9,766 nt of DNA, taken from a virus (Duplodnaviria; Heunggongvirae; Uroviricota; Caudoviricetes). This document shows, in pieces, positions 3,225-9,766 of the stretch. The position numbers were made by a program, and so were the translations under genes. Below the pieces are notes generated by a model, which was given only the letters and a program-made list of their open reading frames with translations, was not told where the DNA came from and did no database searches. The number at the start of each line of letters is the position of its first letter. The stretch's first letter is position 1. The stretch lies in the IMG/VR virus record IMGVR_UViG_2657244961_000006. One strand, 5' to 3'.

Positions 3225-3524
3225 ATGAGAACGTATTTATCTGGCTTGACTGCCAGCGGTTATGCACATCCCAAAATTATCCCCGGCGCTATTTATCGGG
3301 ATAAGAACGGCAACAGAGTAACAGTAAAATCGATAATGTTTGACCGTGTGTACTTTATTCGTGATGGCTATTCATTTCATAGCTCGCTGAACGTGGAGAT
3401 CTTTATTTGCAGATTCCGGCGGGAAATCCCGCCTTCCAGAAATAACCATGTGTCACGTGTGGATGTGGATAAAAAACTACAGGAACTGAAAAACATGATT
3501 GCCGCGTGGAGAGAGCAGAAATGA
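3225..3524 (+). CDS. Hypothetical protein (99 aa), translationally coupled to the primase
   Basis: ORF 3225-3524 with a GGGGA SD upstream; its stop (TGA 3522-3524) overlaps the primase start (ATG 3521-3523) in an ATGA arrangement. Confidence 0.55.
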   Translation: MRTYLSGLTASGYAHPKIIPGAIYRDKNGNRVTVKSIMFDRVYFIRDGYSFHSSLNVEIFICRFRREIPPSRNNHVSRVDVDKKLQELKNMIAAWREQK

Positions 3525-5338
3525 AAAAAGCGCCAAATTTAAAACACCAACCGCGTGACAAAATGACGGAAGTCATCATTTTTGCGGGTAGTGATGCGTG
3601 GGCACATGCGAAGCAGTGGCAGGAACAGGACGGGCGACTGGCTGGCGATAACGTGCCACCTGTCTGGCTTGGAGAGCAACAACTTGCCGAACTGGACAAC
3701 CTGCAAATCGTACCGGACGGACGCTATCGCGTGCGTCTCTACCAGGCGGGGTTATTGCGTCCGGGGCTTGTTAATACCATCGGGCAGAAACTGGCAGCGG
3801 CAGGTGTCAGGGATGCTGATTATTACCCTGAAGGAATGCACAGCCAGAAACGGGAGAACTGGCGCGAATATCTGGAACGTGAACGGGCAGAGCAGGCGGA
3901 AAAGAAAAAGGTAGTTGAACTGCCTGTAAAGAAAAAAGAGCGGGTAAAAGACGATAACGCTTCATCACTGGCGCTTAACCAGATGGGAGCAAGTCAACGC
4001 GGCGAAGTTCTCCTGGCACATTATGGCGGTGAACTGGCGATTCATGCTGACTCTGACACTGTTCACCATTACAACGGCGTTGTATGGGAGCCAGTACAGG
4101 ATAAAGAATTACAGCGAGCTATGGCACAGATTTTCATTGATGCGGAGATCAGCTATTCGCAGAACGCCATTAAATCGGCGGTCGATACCATGAAGTTAAG
4201 TTTGCCTGTAATGGGGAATACAGCCCGTAACCTGATTGGATTCAGTAACGGGGTATTTGATACCAGAACAGGTAATTTTCGGGAGCATAACAAAAACGAC
4301 TGGTTGTTAATTGCCAGTGAATTACCTTTCAGCCCACCAGCAGAGGGGGAAACGCTGGCAACACATGCGCCGAATTTCTGGAAGTGGTTACGCCGTTCGG
4401 TGGCTGAGAATGACCGCAAGGCGGATCGCGTACTGGCTGCATTATTCATGGTGCTGGCGAACCGGTACGACTGGCAGTTATTCATTGAGGTAACAGGTCC
4501 AGGGGGAAGTGGTAAAAGCGTGATGGCGGAGATTTGCACCATGCTGGCGGGTAAGGCCAACACAGTATCGGCAAGCATGAAGGCGCTGGAAGATGCAAGG
4601 GAACGCGCGTTAGTGGTTGGCTTTTCGCTGATTATCATGCCGGATATGACCCGCTACGCTGGTGATGGGGCAGGAATTAAGGCCATTACAGGCGGTGACA
4701 AGGTGGCAATTGACCCGAAACACAAAGCCCCCTACTCAACGCGTATTCCGGCAGTAGTGCTGGCGGTTAACAATAACGCCATGTCATTCAGTGACCGCAG
4801 CGGGGGGATCTCACGTCGTCGGGTGATATTCAATTTTTCGGAAGTTGTACCGGAGAACGAACGCGATCCAATGCTGGCGGAAAAAATAGAAGGTGAGCTG
4901 GCGGTAGTGATTCGCCATCTGCTTACACGGTTTGCTGACCAGGACGAAGCCAGACGCCTGTTATATGAGCAGCAGAAATCTGAAGAAGCACTGGCGATAA
5001 AGCGAGAGGGGGATTCGCTGGTGGACTTCTGCGGCTATCTCATGGCGTCGGTAATGTGTGATGGCCTGTTAGTGGGTAATGCTGAAATTGTGCCATTCAG
5101 CCCACGCAGGTATCTCTATCATGCCTATCTGGCTTATATGAGGGCACATGGGTTTGGTAAACCTGTAACACTGACGCGCTTCGGTAAAGATATGCCGGGG
5201 GCAATGGCGGAATATGGCAGGGAGTATATGAAACGGAAAACGAAGCACGGTTTGCGTTCAAACGTGACACTGACGGAGGAATCAGAAGACTGGATGCCAT
5301 CATGTGTATCGGTCACTAATGACGATAGCAAAAATTAA
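3521..5338 (+). CDS. P4-family phage/plasmid primase with SF3-type helicase domain (605 aa)
   Basis: ATG at 3521 (GGAGAG SD 8 nt upstream) inside ORF 3506-5338. Walker A GPGGSGKS, Walker B-like VVGFSLIIMPD, D5-N / primase C-terminal-like central region. Immediately followed by the cognate-looking iteron array. Confidence 0.85.
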   Translation: MKKAPNLKHQPRDKMTEVIIFAGSDAWAHAKQWQEQDGRLAGDNVPPVWLGEQQLAELDNLQIVPDGRYRVRLYQAGLLRPGLVNTIGQKLAAAGVRDADYYPEGMHSQKRENWREYLERERAEQAEKKKVVELPVKKKERVKDDNASSLALNQMGASQRGEVLLAHYGGELAIHADSDTVHHYNGVVWEPVQDKELQRAMAQIFIDAEISYSQNAIKSAVDTMKLSLPVMGNTARNLIGFSNGVFDTRTGNFREHNKNDWLLIASELPFSPPAEGETLATHAPNFWKWLRRSVAENDRKADRVLAALFMVLANRYDWQLFIEVTGPGGSGKSVMAEICTMLAGKANTVSASMKALEDARERALVVGFSLIIMPDMTRYAGDGAGIKAITGGDKVAIDPKHKAPYSTRIPAVVLAVNNNAMSFSDRSGGISRRRVIFNFSEVVPENERDPMLAEKIEGELAVVIRHLLTRFADQDEARRLLYEQQKSEEALAIKREGDSLVDFCGYLMASVMCDGLLVGNAEIVPFSPRRYLYHAYLAYMRAHGFGKPVTLTRFGKDMPGAMAEYGREYMKRKTKHGLRSNVTLTEESEDWMPSCVSVTNDDSKN

Positions 5339-5352
5339 ACTTATGGAATAAC

Positions 5353-5581
5353 TGTTCACCACTGTTCACCCTGTCATAAATATCTTTTATATCAGTATAT
5401 TATAGGGTGAACAGTTATTTATGAACTGTTCACCAAACTATTCACTGTTCACCTTTTTGATTGTTTATTGAGCTTCAAGGGTGAACAGTGGTGAACAGTT
5501 GGTGAATAGTTTTTGTGAAACTGTTCACCCCTTAACATTATGAATTAAAAGAGAAAATATCAAAAGGTGAACAGGTGAAGG
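5353..5581. repeat. Replication-origin-like iteron array: about 9 perfect copies of TGTTCACC / GGTGAACA in both orientations plus degenerate copies, interspersed with AT-rich DNA
   Basis: Direct copies at 5353, 5363, 5427, 5446, 5522; inverted copies at 5406, 5480, 5490, 5566; degenerate ggtgaata at 5501. The octamer TGTTCACC matches, from memory, the type I iterons bound by P4 alpha protein at ori/crr. Confidence 0.8.
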
Positions 5582-5723: not shown

Positions 5724-5804
5724 CGCCTTTTTTATGGGTCCTCCCGGTGGAGTGGTCTGCCACGGGGCGGGAGCGTCGCGGAAAAAGGCTGGTTTTTGCA
5801 TTTT
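5724..5804 (+). other. cos-like site A: ~80-bp element resembling the lambda cosQ-cosN junction, with candidate cohesive-end 12-mer GGGCGGGAGCGT (5765-5776)
   Basis: Ungapped match to the remembered lambda right-end/left-end junction (gggtcctttccggtg...acg GGGCGGCGACCT cgcggg). Here gggtcctcccggtgg...cacg GGGCGGGAGCGT cgcgg, conserving the flanks and 8 of 12 positions of the 12-mer. About 90 percent identical to element B. Confidence 0.6.
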
Positions 5805-5853
5805 CATGGCGGCGGCAGCATGTGTGATAATTTATTGATAATTAAAAGTTATT

Positions 5854-5951
5854 TCTGTTTTCACCTGTACAATATTTTTTTCTCCCTGTCATTAGACCAG
5901 TTTGCAATTAATTGAAATATATAAATAAATCTGTTTTTCACCTGCCAGGTG
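5854..5951 (+). repeat. Two direct repeats tctgtttt(t)cacctg (5854-5867, 5930-5944) plus palindrome CACCTGcCAGGTG (5939-5951) downstream of cos-like site A; candidate cosB-like terminase-binding sites
   Basis: Read directly. They loosely recall the lambda cosB R-site region (ctgtttttgtccgtgg, from memory). Confidence 0.4.
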
Positions 5952-6119: not shown

Positions 6120-6326
6120 GTGAGTTGTATTAATGACCTGAACACGGGCGATATCAGGGGTGGTTCCGTTCATCTGGATGCGCAGACCGTTATGCGCCTT
6201 AAGCAGTACAGGATCGACCATATAAATCATCATCCTGACAAACCATTACCAGGTGTGGCGCAGATTGTCAGACATGCCGTAAACACCTGGCTTAATCAGA
6301 ATGGTTTTGCATCGGTGGGGGAATAA
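6120..6326 (+). CDS. Small putative RHH-like DNA-binding protein (68 aa, GTG start), translationally coupled to the downstream protease/capsid-like gene
   Basis: Strong SD AAGAGGAAG (6105-6113) about 6 nt before GTG 6120; stop TAA overlaps the next ATG (TAATG at 6324-6328). Product contains a beta-strand-like GGSVHLDAQTV followed by helical segments. Confidence 0.5.
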   Translation: MSCINDLNTGDIRGGSVHLDAQTVMRLKQYRIDHINHHPDKPLPGVAQIVRHAVNTWLNQNGFASVGE

Positions 6327-8239
6327 TGAATCGCTGGTACACCATTAAGGCGGCGGATGTTCGTGGAGCGGCGGATATATCTATCTATGAGGAGATTGGC
6401 GGCTTCGGTGTTACTGCAAAGCAGTTCGCGGAAGACCTGAAAGCCCTTGGCGATGTTTCACATATCAATCTGAGGATCCATTCACCAGGTGGTGATGTGT
6501 TTGAAGGCATCGCCATCTATAACCTGCTACGGAATCATCCGGCAGACATTACGGTTTATATCGATGGTGTTGCGGCTTCAATGGCTTCGGTGGTCGCAAT
6601 GGCTGGCGATCGTGTTGTGATGCCGGAAAACGCCATGATGATGATACATAAGCCGTGGGGTATCTCTGGCGGAAATGCTGGTGATATGCGTGATTATGCT
6701 GATTTGCTGGATAAGGTGGAAACCGTGTTAGTCCCTGCTTATGCCAGAAAAACGGGCAAATCAGCACAGGAAATTACCGCCATGCTGGAAGATGAAACCT
6801 GGATGGACGGGAAAGAATGCCTTAAGCACGGTTTTGCTGATGAATTGTTGCCATCCGTCAGAGCAATGGCGCGAATTGAATCGAAGCGCACAGGAGATTT
6901 TTTACATATGCCGGAAACCATTAAAGGAATGATTACACCGCCACAGGGAGCGGCAAATATTGCTGGTAATGAACAGAAACGCATCAATGGAATAAGTGAA
7001 GTGTTTAGCCTGTTCGGCAGTCGTTACGACGGGATCAAAATGGCGTGTCTGGAAGATGCATCATGTACACCGGAAATGGCCCGTGAAAAGCTGTTGAACG
7101 AGCTGGGGCGCGAGTCCACGCCATCCAATAAAAATACCCCGCCTCATATCTATGCCGGAAACGGAAACATAACAGGTGATGCAATTCGTCAGGGGCTTTA
7201 TTCCCGTCTTGGGTATGAACGCCCTGAACGAGGCAACCCTTACGCGATGATGAGCCTTTTTGAAATGGCCCAGGCATCACTGGTTGATCGTGGTATCACT
7301 GTGAGTGGTTTTATTAATCGCTCGCAGGTTGTTAATGCGGCTTTTACACACAGCAGCAGTGATTTTTCTCATATTCTGGCTGGTGGGGCTGAAAAATCTG
7401 TACTGAAAGGCTGGCAGGACAGCGGCGAAACGTTCCAGAAATGGACGCGTACCGGTTCGCTTTCAAACTTTCATGAAGCAAAGCGCGTTGGTCTGAATGG
7501 TTTTTCAAAGCTGGATAAAGTACCGGAAGGTGCGGAATATAAATACATCACCACCAGCGATAAAGGTGTACCTATTGCGCTGGCCACGTACGGGAATATT
7601 TTTTCCGTTACCCGTCAGGCCATTATCAACGATGACCTGACCCAGTTAACTACAATCCCCATGGCGATGGGACGCGCAGCCGCCAGAACAGTTGGCAATC
7701 TGGTTTATCTCCTGTTAACCAGCAACGGCAAGTTTACGGATGGTAAAGCGTTATTCCATGCCGATCATAAAAATCTTATTGCGAAGGATATGGACATGGT
7801 GGGGCTTGATGAAGCCCGTAAGCTGATGCGCCTCCAGGAGGATGCTAACGGCGACTCACTGAATATTACCCCTGCTTTTGTTCTGGTCCCTGCCGCGCTG
7901 GAATCTGCCGCGCGTCGCGCCATTCTGTCATCGTCATCAGTCTTTCCGGTTGGTGATGAGGGCACTATCAATCAGAACCCCGGCATCATTAACGTTGTGA
8001 AAGATATGGCAGAAGTAATTGTTGAGCCACGTCTTGATAAGGCCAATAGCAAGGAATGGTATGTAGCCGCAGCTAAGGGGATGGACACAATAGAAGTCGC
8101 TTATCTTGATGGTATGGATACGCCATATCTTGAGGAGCAGGTGGGCTTTACTGTTGATGGTGTCGCCTGGAAGGTGCGCATAGATGCAGGTGTCGCGGCC
8201 CTCGATTATCGTGGATTGCTGAAATCGAATGGAGCATGA
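6326..8239 (+). CDS. Fusion protein (637 aa): N-terminal ClpP-like (S14) prohead-protease domain plus large C-terminal domain, possibly an HK97-fold major capsid-like domain
   Basis: ORF 6326-8239. Residues ~20-190 show the ClpP signature (GDVFEGIAIYN, GVAASMASVVAMAGD with the candidate catalytic Ser, MMMIHKPWG with the candidate His, later acidic residues). The C-terminal ~430 aa are long enough for a scaffold plus capsid domain; the capsid assignment is from general resemblance only. Confidence 0.8.
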   Translation: MNRWYTIKAADVRGAADISIYEEIGGFGVTAKQFAEDLKALGDVSHINLRIHSPGGDVFEGIAIYNLLRNHPADITVYIDGVAASMASVVAMAGDRVVMPENAMMMIHKPWGISGGNAGDMRDYADLLDKVETVLVPAYARKTGKSAQEITAMLEDETWMDGKECLKHGFADELLPSVRAMARIESKRTGDFLHMPETIKGMITPPQGAANIAGNEQKRINGISEVFSLFGSRYDGIKMACLEDASCTPEMAREKLLNELGRESTPSNKNTPPHIYAGNGNITGDAIRQGLYSRLGYERPERGNPYAMMSLFEMAQASLVDRGITVSGFINRSQVVNAAFTHSSSDFSHILAGGAEKSVLKGWQDSGETFQKWTRTGSLSNFHEAKRVGLNGFSKLDKVPEGAEYKYITTSDKGVPIALATYGNIFSVTRQAIINDDLTQLTTIPMAMGRAAARTVGNLVYLLLTSNGKFTDGKALFHADHKNLIAKDMDMVGLDEARKLMRLQEDANGDSLNITPAFVLVPAALESAARRAILSSSSVFPVGDEGTINQNPGIINVVKDMAEVIVEPRLDKANSKEWYVAAAKGMDTIEVAYLDGMDTPYLEEQVGFTVDGVAWKVRIDAGVAALDYRGLLKSNGA

Positions 8240-8267
8240 CAACAAGGCGGTACTTTGAACACGTGGG

Positions 8268-8431
8268 GCGGCGAGCTGCCGCACCATATTCCTGAACAAC
8301 TGAGCAAACGAGAGAGGTATACCGACAAATGGCAGCGACGCACACACTCCCTCTGGCGTCACCGGGCATGGCACGCATCTGCCTTTACGGGGATTTACAA
8401 CGATTTGGCCGCCGCATCGATCTTCATGTGA
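8268..8431 (+). pseudogene. Start-less 3' remnant of a lambdoid tail-tip assembly protein K-like gene, overlapping the start of the I-like gene
   Basis: The frame is open from 8240 to the TGA at 8429-8431 with no start codon, encoding ...GELPHHIPEQLSKRERYTDKWQRRTHSLWRHRAWHASAFTGIYNDLAAASIFM. This resembles the C-terminus of lambda K as I recall it, and in lambda K overlaps I in the same way. Confidence 0.5.
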
Positions 8432-8970
8432 AAACGGGGGCCGAAGCCATCCGGGCGCTGGCCATGCAGATCCCAGCGTTTCGTCAGAAACTGAGCGATG
8501 GTTGGTATCAGGTGCGTATTGCCGGGCGTGATACAGGCGAAAACGAATTATCAGCCCGTCTTAATGAACCGCTGGAAAATGGTGCCGTGATCCACATCGT
8601 ACCGCGTCTGGCTGGTGCCAAAAGTGGCGGCGTGTTTCAGGCGGTGCTTGGTGCGGCGCTGATTGCTACGGCAATCTGGATGCCAGGAATCAGTATCGCT
8701 TTCAGTGACATTCTCTTTTCAATGGGGGCGGCGATGACACTTGGTGGTGTTGCACAGATGCTGGCACCGAAAGCCAGCACAGCAACAGCCAGCACCACGG
8801 ATAACGGTAAGCAGAACACCTATTTCTCCTCTCTGGATAACATGGTTGCCCAGGGCAATGTTATGCCTGTTCTGTACGGTGAAATGCGCGTCGGGTCGCG
8901 GGTGATTTCGCAAGAGATCAGCACAGCAGATGAAGGGGATGGCGGCCAGATTGTGGTGATTGGTCGCTGA
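8329..8970 (+). CDS. Lambdoid tail-tip assembly protein I homologue (213 aa)
   Basis: ORF 8329-8970. N-terminus MAATHTLPLASPGMARICLYGDLQRFGRRIDL... and C-terminus ...DNGKQNTYFSSLDNMVAQGNVMPVLYGEMRVGSRVISQEISTADEGDGGQIVVIGR closely match my recollection of phage lambda gpI. The central hydrophobic segment is shorter than in lambda. Confidence 0.8.
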   Translation: MAATHTLPLASPGMARICLYGDLQRFGRRIDLHVKTGAEAIRALAMQIPAFRQKLSDGWYQVRIAGRDTGENELSARLNEPLENGAVIHIVPRLAGAKSGGVFQAVLGAALIATAIWMPGISIAFSDILFSMGAAMTLGGVAQMLAPKASTATASTTDNGKQNTYFSSLDNMVAQGNVMPVLYGEMRVGSRVISQEISTADEGDGGQIVVIGR

Positions 8971-8987
8971 TACAAAACGTTTTATGT

Positions 8988-9010
8988 AAAACCGCCTGCG
9001 GGCGGTTTTG
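8988..9010 (+). terminator. Rho-independent terminator (aaaaccgcc-tgcg-ggcggtttt) after the I-like gene
   Basis: GC stem flanked by an A-run and a T-run, read directly. The same hairpin follows gene I in lambda, as far as I recall. Confidence 0.7.
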
Positions 9011-9041
9011 TCGCTCATGGAGCATAAACAATAGTGACAGT

Positions 9042-9124
9042 CGCCTTTTTTGGGTGGGTCCTCCCGGTGAGGTGGCCTGCCACGGGGCGGGAGCGGCGCG
9101 GAAAAAGGCTAGTTTTTGCATTTT
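9042..9124 (+). other. cos-like site B: second copy of the cosQ-cosN-like element, with candidate 12-mer GGGCGGGAGCGG (9085-9096), directly upstream of the Nu1-like gene
   Basis: About 90 percent identical to element A over ~80 bp. The downstream AT-rich DNA (ttcgtcat..., gtttttattt) resembles the lambda cosB/I-site region as remembered. The position relative to the small terminase gene mirrors lambda cos-Nu1. Confidence 0.65.
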
Positions 9125-9280
9125 TATTCGTCATCATCATCTTTCTATTATATTGAATTTTAAGTGTTTTTATTTTTGGTATGTTAATTTTGCTTATTTT
9201 GTGTTCAACATGCAGCGCGTTTTTTGACCTTTTTTAAAAGATATTTGCAAGATGCATTTTTAAAACATTCTGGAGCGGGT
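9125..9280 (+). promoter_or_regulatory. AT-rich cosB-like / promoter region upstream of terS
   Basis: A+T-rich 150 bp between cos-like site B and the terS start; contains ttcgtcat and gtttttattt motifs; no individual promoter elements called. Confidence 0.4.
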
Positions 9281-9766
9281 ATGGATCGGGAACTGAAAAA
9301 TCTGATGCTGAACATTAACCAGCTGGCGGCGATAGCGGGAATATGTCGCCAGACTGCGGCGGCAAGGCTGAAAAATATCCAGCCAGCCGGAGGACATGAC
9401 AAGCTGAAACTCTATCGGGTGACTGACATTCTGACCTGTTTTCTTGATCTTCCCGTTCCGGCATCACTGGAAGAAATGGAGCCACACGACCGTAAGGCCT
9501 GGTATCAGTCCGAACGTGAGCGCCTCAAGTTCGAACAGGAAACGGCGCAACTCATACCCGCCGATGATGTGCGAAAAGAGATGGCTATATGGGGAGAAAT
9601 CGTAAGCGAGGAACTGGAAAAACTCCCCAGTATTCTGGCACGTGATGTTGGGCTTAAACCGATGGCAGTAAACAGAGTGCAGTCAATTATTGACGATTTG
9701 TGTAATCAGATTATCAGCCGGATGGTAAAAAATGACGTAGTGAATGAGGTCGCAAAACAGGCATGA
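9281..9766 (+). CDS. terS: Nu1-like small terminase subunit / packaging-specificity protein (161 aa)
   Basis: ATG at 9281 (GGAG SD 6 nt upstream) inside ORF 9224-9766. N-terminal winged-HTH-like segment LNINQLAAIAGICRQTAAARLKN...LKLYRVTDIL parallels lambda Nu1 (VNKKQLADIFGASIRTIQNWQ...EVLYDSAAVIKWY, from memory), followed by a helical ERERLKFEQETAQL region. Confidence 0.7.
   Translation: MDRELKNLMLNINQLAAIAGICRQTAAARLKNIQPAGGHDKLKLYRVTDILTCFLDLPVPASLEEMEPHDRKAWYQSERERLKFEQETAQLIPADDVRKEMAIWGEIVSEELEKLPSILARDVGLKPMAVNRVQSIIDDLCNQIISRMVKNDVVNEVAKQA

Follow-up and report, generated by a model that had tools for sequence, protein, structure and literature searches.

The stretch of DNA analyzed here (the window: IMG/VR virus record IMGVR_UViG_2657244961_000006 at its full length of 9,766 nucleotides) covers most of a ~10.8-kb integrative phage satellite, and its last gene, which we call terS', encodes a homologue of the small subunit of phage terminase (TerS). 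Alignments with phages and other satellites indicate that terS' is chimeric. The cosB region that precedes it and codons 1 to ~90 form a cassette that is exchangeable between phages and satellites, and codons ~96 to 161 form a module that is found only in satellites. The reading that we tentatively favor is that the product is a satellite-adapted TerS derivative, a packaging-specificity factor that would select island DNA at the cos site just upstream (site B), likely by co-assembling with the TerS of the helper phage. The gene and the regions of its product are as follows.

9281..9766, + strand: terS' gene, satellite-type small terminase homologue of 161 aa, DUF1441 / PHROG 141

9305..9448, + strand: winged helix-turn-helix domain for DNA binding (residues 9-56), in which residues 23-29, inside ICRQTAAARLKN, are the predicted recognition helix

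9482..9565, + strand: central helix and linker with KAWYQSERERLKFEQETAQLIPA, residues 68-95

9566..9763, + strand: satellite-specific C-terminal module, residues 96-161; helices 94-113, 115-123 and 127-149; disordered neutral tail 152-161

The open reading frame (ORF) is complete, running from the ATG at 9281 to the TGA at 9764-9766, with a ribosome-binding site (GGAG, 9272-9275) 5 nt before the ATG. A scan of 8200-9766 for promoters and terminators gave no signal exceeding shuffled expectation. An identical protein with the same start is present in related genomes as RefSeq WP_000373415.1, labelled 'DUF1441 family protein', and the frame was unbroken in 36 of 36 IMG/VR satellite loci as well as in the chromosomal and episomal copies examined. 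The product matched the Pfam model DUF1441 (PF07278) with 122 bits (E=2.2e-35), above the curated cutoff of 35.1 bits, and PHROG 141 (phrog_141), 'terminase small subunit', with E=5e-57. In tblastn comparisons, it was 66-71% identical over residues 1-150 to the annotated TerS of mEp460, Ayreon, phi458 and vB_EcoS-606R10 and to the product of the equivalent, unannotated gene of PhiR40_1, and 44-57% identical to the TerS of mEp043, LLS, CP-1639, VT1-Sakai and Gifsy-2. By these matches, the terS' protein is a TerS homologue of the DUF1441 / PHROG 141 family, as carried by lambdoid phages of the mEp460, PhiR40_1, LLS and Gifsy-2 types.

An earlier note on this DNA had called the protein a Nu1-like small terminase. 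That it is a TerS homologue held, but it belongs to the DUF1441 / PHROG 141 family rather than to that of Nu1. The Phage_Nu1 model (PF07471) gave no match in the Pfam scan, and searches of the PDB sequences with the protein (phmmer) and with the family profile returned nothing meaningful and no Nu1 or RppC chains. HHalign related the family to Nu1 over 46 columns only (E=7e-4, 26% identity). The terS' protein is thus outside the Pfam Nu1 family, and its likeness to Nu1 is limited to the winged helix-turn-helix fold. The AlphaFold2 model, built on an alignment of 57 sequences, was confident (mean predicted local distance difference test score 82.5) and showed a winged helix-turn-helix with a strand at 9-11, helices at 12-19 and 23-29, a wing at 37-46 and a further helix at 47-56, followed by a long helix at 68-87, a helical C-terminal domain at 94-149 and a disordered tail at 152-161. 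The Nu1-like N-terminal DNA-binding region proposed in the note is therefore correct as a fold, a predicted domain of the Nu1/MerR type. Comparison with the redirecting protein RppA (see below) yielded no detectable sequence relation (HHalign E=0.049 over 23 columns; no match when RppA was compared by BLASTP with the terS' protein).

In phage lambda, TerS consists of a domain at the N-terminus that binds DNA, a central oligomerization domain and a C-terminal domain that binds the large subunit, TerL, at its N-terminus (PMC9026076). According to the same source, chimeras between the TerS of lambda and 21 place cosB specificity in the N-terminal half and TerL specificity in the C-terminal half. 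By analogy with this organization, the central helix of the terS' protein is presumed to be an oligomerization element; the region of this helix and of the linker KAWYQSERERLKFEQETAQLIPA is near-invariant across the family and identical to that of E. coli phage TerS.

The mosaic structure was apparent from the distribution of identity along the gene. Compared with the prophage TerS P0010, the protein was 100% identical over residues 1-60, 95% over 61-100, 64% over 101-144 and 18% over 145-161, which bears out the divergent C-terminal part noticed earlier. The N-terminal ~95 residues of another satellite protein, P0007, are those of phage mEp460_4F5, and a third satellite protein, P0015, has a third N-terminal type. 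The C-terminal 60 residues are nevertheless common to the window protein, P0007 and P0015 at 93-100%, whatever the DNA-binding domain. DNA comparisons gave the reciprocal picture. Between the window and prophage L012, identity was 95-100% from cosQ to ~9540 (80-100% in 40-nt windows over 9097-9280) and 55-65% thereafter. Between the window and satellite L017, it was ~100% at cosQ and cosN, dropped to 46-80% through cosB and the gene's 5' half, and reached 98-100% from ~9500 to the end. L017 and mEp460_4F5 showed the same pattern as the window and L012, and the two phages, L012 and mEp460_4F5, are identical to one another in the 3' half of the gene. The recombination breakpoint was thus located at ~9540-9560, within the near-invariant KAWYQSERERLKFEQETAQLIPA segment (codons ~87-93).

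The substitutions that mark the satellite version all fall at residue 99 or beyond. Satellites carry R99K, T114K, E120A and D142N, and at each of these four positions 50 of 50 phage-type proteins of the alignment have the same residue. The net charge of the last 18 residues is 0 to +1 in satellites (+1 in the window protein), as compared with -2 to -10 in the 50 phage proteins. The window protein accordingly lacks the phage-family combination of R99, T114, E120 and D142 with an acidic tail. The acidic tail was considered as a hallmark of the whole family and rejected as such: it is universal in close phage relatives and present in ~75% of distant ones, and it is no universal requirement, since about a quarter of distant family members lack a clear one.

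The satellite version of the C-terminal part was absent from the phage records of INPHARED, and no phage with a matching C-terminal domain was found. When the module alone (residues 96-161) was compared with a set of 5.8 billion proteins, only truncated satellite-type proteins were retrieved, and no other context. Its ratio of nonsynonymous to synonymous substitution rates (dN/dS) against the deeply diverged satellite-type branch P0018 was ~0.15, an approximate figure because dS is near saturation (~2) in this comparison; the value indicates that the module is under purifying selection. P0018 shares K99, W104, G105, E111 and K114 with the window protein, and its tail is also non-acidic.

P0018 is encoded on a metagenome contig (L026) and stands for a further satellite-type TerS branch, which is diverged and whose tail is long and non-acidic; the gene is flanked by a cos of the DUF1441-phage type upstream and a lambda-type cos ~760 nt downstream, and it is followed neither by a TerL gene nor by orf93 (the gene that follows terS' in other satellites, see below). 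Two fusions were also encountered. P0005 (E. coli O9,30:H25; 234 aa) joins the N-terminus of a ClpP/major capsid protein fusion to a satellite-type TerS and is probably an island deletion variant that lost most of the capsid gene together with site B. P0032 is a natural read-through fusion of TerS and TerL.

The gene downstream also separated the two types. Linkage was counted in 80 IMG/VR loci, using those with enough downstream sequence. After a satellite-type tail, orf93 came next in 28 of 30 loci and a TerL gene in none; the remaining two (L060, L061) are copies embedded in TerL, which stop directly behind the gene and lack orf93. An acidic tail was followed by TerL in 42 of 43 loci, and no crossover cases were observed among the IMG/VR loci. 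In the island, the next gene is thus not the overlapping gpA-type TerL gene of the phages but orf93, after which the island ends. This gene (93 aa) starts two bases 3' of terS', just past the end of the window. It is a conserved ORF, found at 15798-16079 in L001 and 3374-3655 in L020, that comes after terS' and also after rppA in EcCICFT073. Its product belongs to PHROG 1561, of unknown function, has a strongly basic C-terminus and matched no family in a Pfam scan. The idea that it might be an N-terminal fragment of TerL was rejected, as no similarity was detected. Among five phages, the identity of the TerS C-terminal domain and that of TerL residues 1-60 changed in step (99/100, 68/70, 71/61 and 44/36%), while TerL residues 61-200 stayed at 74-100%. 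This covariation fits the lambda rule that the C-terminus of TerS binds the N-terminus of TerL.

The window contains two cos-like sites, A and B, and the earlier note had left it undecided which of them the protein recognizes.

9056..9096, + strand: site B core, with cosQ-like GGGTCCTCCCGGTG at 9056-9069 and the cosN 12-mer GGGCGGGAGCGG at 9085-9096, aligned with lambda, LLS, mEp460_4F5 and PhiR40_1

9097..9280, + strand: cosB of site B, of phage-like architecture, with motifs taken from a cross-phage alignment

5736..5776, + strand: site A core, with cosQ-like GGGTCCTCCCGGTG at 5736-5749 and the cosN 12-mer GGGCGGGAGCGT at 5765-5776

The sites form a repeat (D1) with 89% identity over 80 nt. 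Twenty nucleotides past cosQ, both read CCACG/GGGCGGGAGCG(T/G)/CGCGGAAAAAGGC, which aligns base for base with lambda cosN and with the 12-nt cohesive end that is annotated in phage LLS. As had been noted, terS' lies directly after site B: its ATG at 9281 is 185 nt past cosN, in alignment with the phage arrangement (about 190 nt), and as in the phages it is the first gene after cos. Only site B runs on into a phage-type cosB, up to the ATG. This region contains TCGTCATCATCATC (9128-9141), an A/T-rich block (9151-9164), two copies of TGCATTTTTA (9117-9126 and 9253-9262) and the imperfect inverted half-sites ATGTTAAT (9181-9188) and TTCAACAT (9204-9211), the latter being candidates from a by-eye cross-phage alignment. 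These motifs may be TerS binding sites, though a repeat search for such sites in cosB had an ambiguous outcome. The homology of site A to phage cos ends at ~5861 (BLAST, 5736-5861), ~85 nt past cosN; site A has no TCGTCATCATCATC block, at the position equivalent to R3, and no distal inverted half-sites, whereas every phage and every site B have TCGTCATCATCATC.

Among the satellite loci, 31 had sufficient sequence ahead of the gene to be surveyed, and in 30 of these site B was at -199 from the ATG. A copy of the site A type was present in ~20, site B stood alone in 8, and site A was absent from L017 and L019. The flank of site A was constant across the types of DNA-binding domain, whereas the cosB DNA was only 46-80% identical to that of satellites with another type. 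The joint change of cosB and DNA-binding domain is the strongest indication at hand that the terS' protein recognizes site B. From its universality, its fixed distance and this covariation, site B rather than site A is the cognate site; site A, which is optional among satellites, would not be an initiation site for the protein. With cosQ and cosN but no cosB, it comes closer to lambda's requirements for terminal cutting than to those for initiation (judged by lambda biology as summarized in PMC6739421 and PMC9026076). Deletion of the second cos site of the island EcCICFT073 did not lower transfer (PMC6092414).

A few further features of these sites were recorded. The last base of cosN is T in site A (5776) and G in site B (9096) in the window, so that cohesive ends made at the two sites would fail to pair at one base; it is G at both sites in L001 and L002. 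Downstream of site A, two direct copies of TTTTCACCTG are present (5858-5867 and 5935-5944), the second of which lies inside the palindrome CACCTGCCAGGTG (5939-5951). The capsid operon lies downstream of this palindrome, and a regulatory role, such as that of an operator, is conceivable here. The ends of IMG/VR contigs were considered as a proxy for physical genome ends and discarded: the contigs are gene-bounded prophage predictions without circular overlaps or cos ends and are therefore silent on which cos is cut.

We compared the specificity types of satellites and potential helpers. In E. coli IMT16316 (NZ_CP023815.1; 448-13441; locus L025), a satellite encoding exactly the window protein, with an integrase disrupted by IS1, lies inside the TerL gene of a lambdoid prophage that carries a DUF1441 TerS and a ClpP/capsid fusion, a helper-embedded configuration of the kind described in PMC10111431 and one that ties the satellite physically to a phage of this lineage. 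The satellite and the surrounding prophage share cosQ and cosN and differ in the type of cosB and DNA-binding domain. In the IMG/VR sample, which is pattern-biased, 36 satellites but only 2 phages had the DNA-binding domain of the window type, and no satellite had the type that was commonest in phages (41 loci). The IMT16316 case and these counts led us to reject the idea that the DNA-binding domain of a satellite always matches that of its helper. A private DNA specificity of the satellite is thus plausible from these comparisons, but not universal, because the phages L012 and L064 share the cassette of the island.

The position of terS' in the island offered a further comparison. By gene order, size and integration at an attachment (att) site, the element is a phage-inducible chromosomal island (PICI) of the Gram-negative, EcCICFT073 type, that is, a cos-type satellite; the two have the same gene order, with identities of 78% for the integrase, 59% for AlpA, 50% for the Icd-like protein, 49% for the primase, 43% for YlcI and 35% for DUF4222. 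The right arm of EcCICFT073 consists of a 68-aa ORF, the capsid gene, a decoration protein gene, a hypothetical gene, a cos site (+), the gene for a 144-aa protein, a cos site (-) and a 93-aa ORF, followed by the chromosome. The 144-aa protein matches RppA (c1503) in size and position and resembles Nu1 at its N-terminus only (30% over 64 aa, E=2.6e-5), and the product of the 93-aa ORF is 74% identical to that of orf93. Judged by this synteny, terS' occupies the rppA slot of an EcCICFT073-type PICI, and two islands of the same backbone each carry, in the same slot behind cos, a derivative of the TerS family of their respective helpers. Rpp consists of a TerS-like winged helix-turn-helix and an unrelated C-terminal dimerization domain; by binding to helper TerS, it steers this protein to the island cos, and it blocks phage packaging (PMC6739421). 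Its origin was explicitly left open in that study.

In the reading that we tentatively favor, which draws on sequence comparison and structure prediction, the winged helix-turn-helix would bind the cosB of site B, marking island concatemers for cutting at cosN by the helper TerL. The satellite module, having lost the acidic tail and the four phage-invariant residues, would not engage TerL as a phage TerS does, since by analogy with lambda the altered half is the TerL-binding one. The protein would co-assemble with helper TerS through the identical central helix, and in the mixed oligomer the helper subunits would bring TerL and the satellite subunits the specificity for site B. Helper TerS would be drawn away from the phage cos, an Rpp-like mode of action arising from a different TerS family. 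Co-assembly was favored because the oligomerization region is that of the helper, the presumed TerL-binding half is non-phage and Rpp provides a precedent in the same slot. Several points weigh against this reading. The TerL-binding role of the C-terminus is carried over to DUF1441 proteins from lambda, 21 and P22, and the covariation of the TerS C-terminus with the TerL N-terminus, from five phages only, could reflect linkage of adjacent DNA rather than co-adaptation. The C-terminal domain retains the family-invariant residues P116, L119, R121, D122, Q134 and D138, with ~64% identity over 101-144, so that direct binding of TerL through a retained surface is possible, and in an exhaustive search 20 of 79 representatives of the wider family (27-56% identity) had no clearly acidic tail. 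A mixed oligomer with two types of DNA-binding domain might bind neither cosB well, and the phages L012 and L064 carry the same DNA-binding domain and cosB as the island.

The main rival possibility is that the protein is instead an autonomous replacement TerS, comparable to that of the pac-type Staphylococcus aureus pathogenicity islands (SaPIs), which would form its own oligomer on site B and recruit TerL directly via its diverged C-terminal domain; the satellite changes would then make the binding of TerL broader or stronger, or protect the protein from an inhibitor, and helper TerS would be dispensable. The protein is indeed full-length, with all three TerS regions and a confidently predicted fold, it lies behind a complete phage-like cosB, and its module is under purifying selection. 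The family-invariant residues of the C-terminal domain and the non-acidic tails of about a quarter of distant relatives are also in keeping with it, as are the often differing DNA-binding domains of satellite and helper, which would be expected of a private TerS/cosB pair driving preferential packaging. This possibility nevertheless appears rather unlikely. It would reverse the SaPI pattern described in PMC6739421, the presumed TerL-binding half being here the one that is systematically non-phage. Furthermore, the four altered residues are invariant across phages whose TerL N-termini are down to 36% identical, the acidic tail of every close phage homologue is lost, and no phage with a matching C-terminal domain, and hence a matching TerL, was found.

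A protein with the DNA-binding and central parts of some helper TerS and an altered C-terminal half could also act mainly by interference, as a dominant-negative TerS occupying phage cosB or poisoning helper TerS oligomers, with the island being packaged via its helper-type cos. Rpp likewise blocks phage packaging (PMC6739421), and cos-only satellites are packaged without a TerS of their own (PMC6739421; PMC10111431). Such a role is improbable, since site B of the island itself, with the same cosB, would be equally blocked, the DNA-binding domain is unlike that of the likely helper in many pairings, and the strict covariation of cosB with this domain and the fixed -199 spacing argue for a positive action on site B. 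That terS' is a non-functional relic, a recombination-captured and decaying piece of a helper cos-terS region, is suggested by the captured phage fragment that this lineage carries nearby (8269-8970, 85% identical to phage DNA); it is very improbable in view of the intact frame in all 36 loci, the 93-100% conservation of the module across satellites with differing integrases, sites and DNA-binding domains, its dN/dS of ~0.15 and the conserved placement of the gene. The alternative put forward in the earlier note, an own TerS or a helper-redirecting factor, was the right dichotomy, though the protein is not simply a replacement TerS and does not belong to the Rpp family either.

Like RppA and RppC (PMC6739421), the terS' protein belongs to a PICI with two cos sites, is encoded between cos and a 93-aa ORF next to the right attachment site (attR), and is TerS-derived, with a winged helix-turn-helix of the MerR/Nu1 type and a C-terminal part other than that of helper TerS. 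It differs in that it has no detectable sequence relationship to Rpp and derives from the DUF1441 rather than the Nu1 family. Rpp has 144-153 aa and an unrelated dimerization domain, whereas the terS' protein is full-length, with a central helix and a C-terminal domain homologous to that of the phage, though altered at invariant positions and in the tail; and the cosB of the island keeps the phage architecture, whereas Rpp islands have no phage cosB. With phage TerS of the DUF1441 family it has in common an overall identity of 66-85% (the N-terminal ~95 residues being identical to those of some), the predicted fold and the position after cos. It has 161 aa, as compared with 163-164 in the E. 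coli phage TerS examined, and where those have an acidic tail and an overlapping TerL gene, it has satellite-only residues 96-161 and is followed by orf93. Lambda gpNu1 (PF07471) is likewise the product of the first gene past cos and is composed of a DNA-binding domain, a helical middle and a C-terminal part (PMC9026076), but represents a separate sequence family without a Pfam/HMMER match to the window protein. The TerS_S of SaPIs is also a satellite-encoded homologue of the helper small terminase that serves satellite packaging; according to PMC6739421, SaPI packaging is headful (pac), unlike that of the cos-type island, and TerS_S combines its own DNA specificity with phage TerL, whereas here the DNA-binding domain can be identical to that of a phage and the presumed TerL-binding half is satellite-specific. 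The laboratory lambda-21 chimeras cited in PMC9026076 were joined mid-gene at the equivalent place (codons ~87-93 of the window protein), but are engineered and phage-phage, whereas the present chimeras are natural and phage-satellite. An earlier study (PMC6092414) had remarked on Gram-negative PICIs 'with a terS homologue'. In the literature, we found no characterized DUF1441-type protein in a satellite and met the term DUF1441 in phage-genome papers only. Satellite TerS homologues and Rpp were thus already known; the cosB/DNA-binding cassette shared with phages, the satellite-only C-terminal module and the equivalence with the rpp slot are new.

In the island, the integrase gene (1-1239) is followed by genes for AlpA, a YlcI/YnfO-like protein, an Icd-like protein, DUF4222 and a D5/P4-type primase (3506-5338), by iterons (5340-5575), site A, a 68-aa ORF and the capsid gene, and then by a tail-gene fragment with an I-like gene, site B and terS'.

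6326..8239, + strand: ClpP-like prohead protease / major capsid protein fusion (NCBIfam NF045540, E=7e-271)

This fusion, a helper-matched morphogenesis gene in the same module as terS', is homologous to that of the DUF1441 TerS phages, in which the order is Rz, cos, TerS (163-172 aa), a gpA-type TerL gene overlapping that of TerS, a W-like gene, the portal gene and the ClpP/capsid fusion. That the capsid fusion and terS' of the island are of one phage lineage points to the helpers. The element family is common: of 5,426 complete E. coli genomes, 56 contained at least 80% of the window. Chromosomal copies lie between cspD/yljB and clpS, and full copies are ~1 kb longer than the window and contain orf93 and then the right attachment site. 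The window runs from the integrase ATG to the terS' stop codon, as do several IMG/VR entries (L045, L052); since its bounds fall on start and stop codons, it looks like a gene-bounded prophage prediction without orf93 and both att sites.

Other observations concern single copies or regions of the element. In a human E. coli isolate, the entire element was deposited as a 10,790-bp circular 'plasmid' (pZ1323HEC0475-3, NZ_CP148328.1; L002), which suggests that the element had been excised and was replicating as an episome in that culture. Dense direct and inverted repeats of GGTGAACAG / CTGTTCACC right after the primase gene (5337-5575) are probably an iteron-type replication origin. In the segment 8269-8970, a complete lambda I-like tail assembly gene is accompanied by the 3' end of a lambda K-like one, which in relatives is annotated as a pseudogene fragment; the segment is 85% identical to DNA of vB_EcoS-606R10, is present in a minority of satellites (e.g. 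L001, L002, L048 and L049) and represents either a fragment captured from a phage or an accessory gene. A related satellite is present in tandem (L017/L018, GCA_031665325.1) at a second chromosomal site, near allantoin and purK genes; its copies have site B alone and a cassette with the mEp460-type DNA-binding domain.

Satellites reach cos or pac packaging by copying the helper cos, by encoding a private TerS, or by reprogramming helper TerS with Rpp. The terS' protein falls between the last two, with a DNA-binding cassette of the helper family and a presumed TerL-binding half found only in satellites. It is possible, though somewhat doubtful, that the rpp slot is a general one for helper-matched TerS derivatives, in which parasites of Nu1-type phages carry Rpp and those of DUF1441-type phages the terS' protein, the latter being a hybrid subunit of the helper TerS oligomer and a less derived, full-length stage of a path along which the DNA-binding and oligomerization parts of the helper protein are kept and the TerL-binding part is replaced. 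If so, packaging redirectors would be a convergent invention from two unrelated TerS families. Co-assembly of the protein with helper TerS would show by what route Rpp-like redirectors arise from TerS, and that they did so on at least two occasions; direct binding of TerL would represent a second, satellite-specific way to engage a gpA-type large terminase. Either way, these proteins are natural chimeras with which cosB specificity and the coupling to TerL could be mapped in a terminase family that is common yet unstudied. Gifsy-2 and Stx-converting phages such as VT1-Sakai carry members of this family, and the only annotation of the protein is 'DUF1441'.

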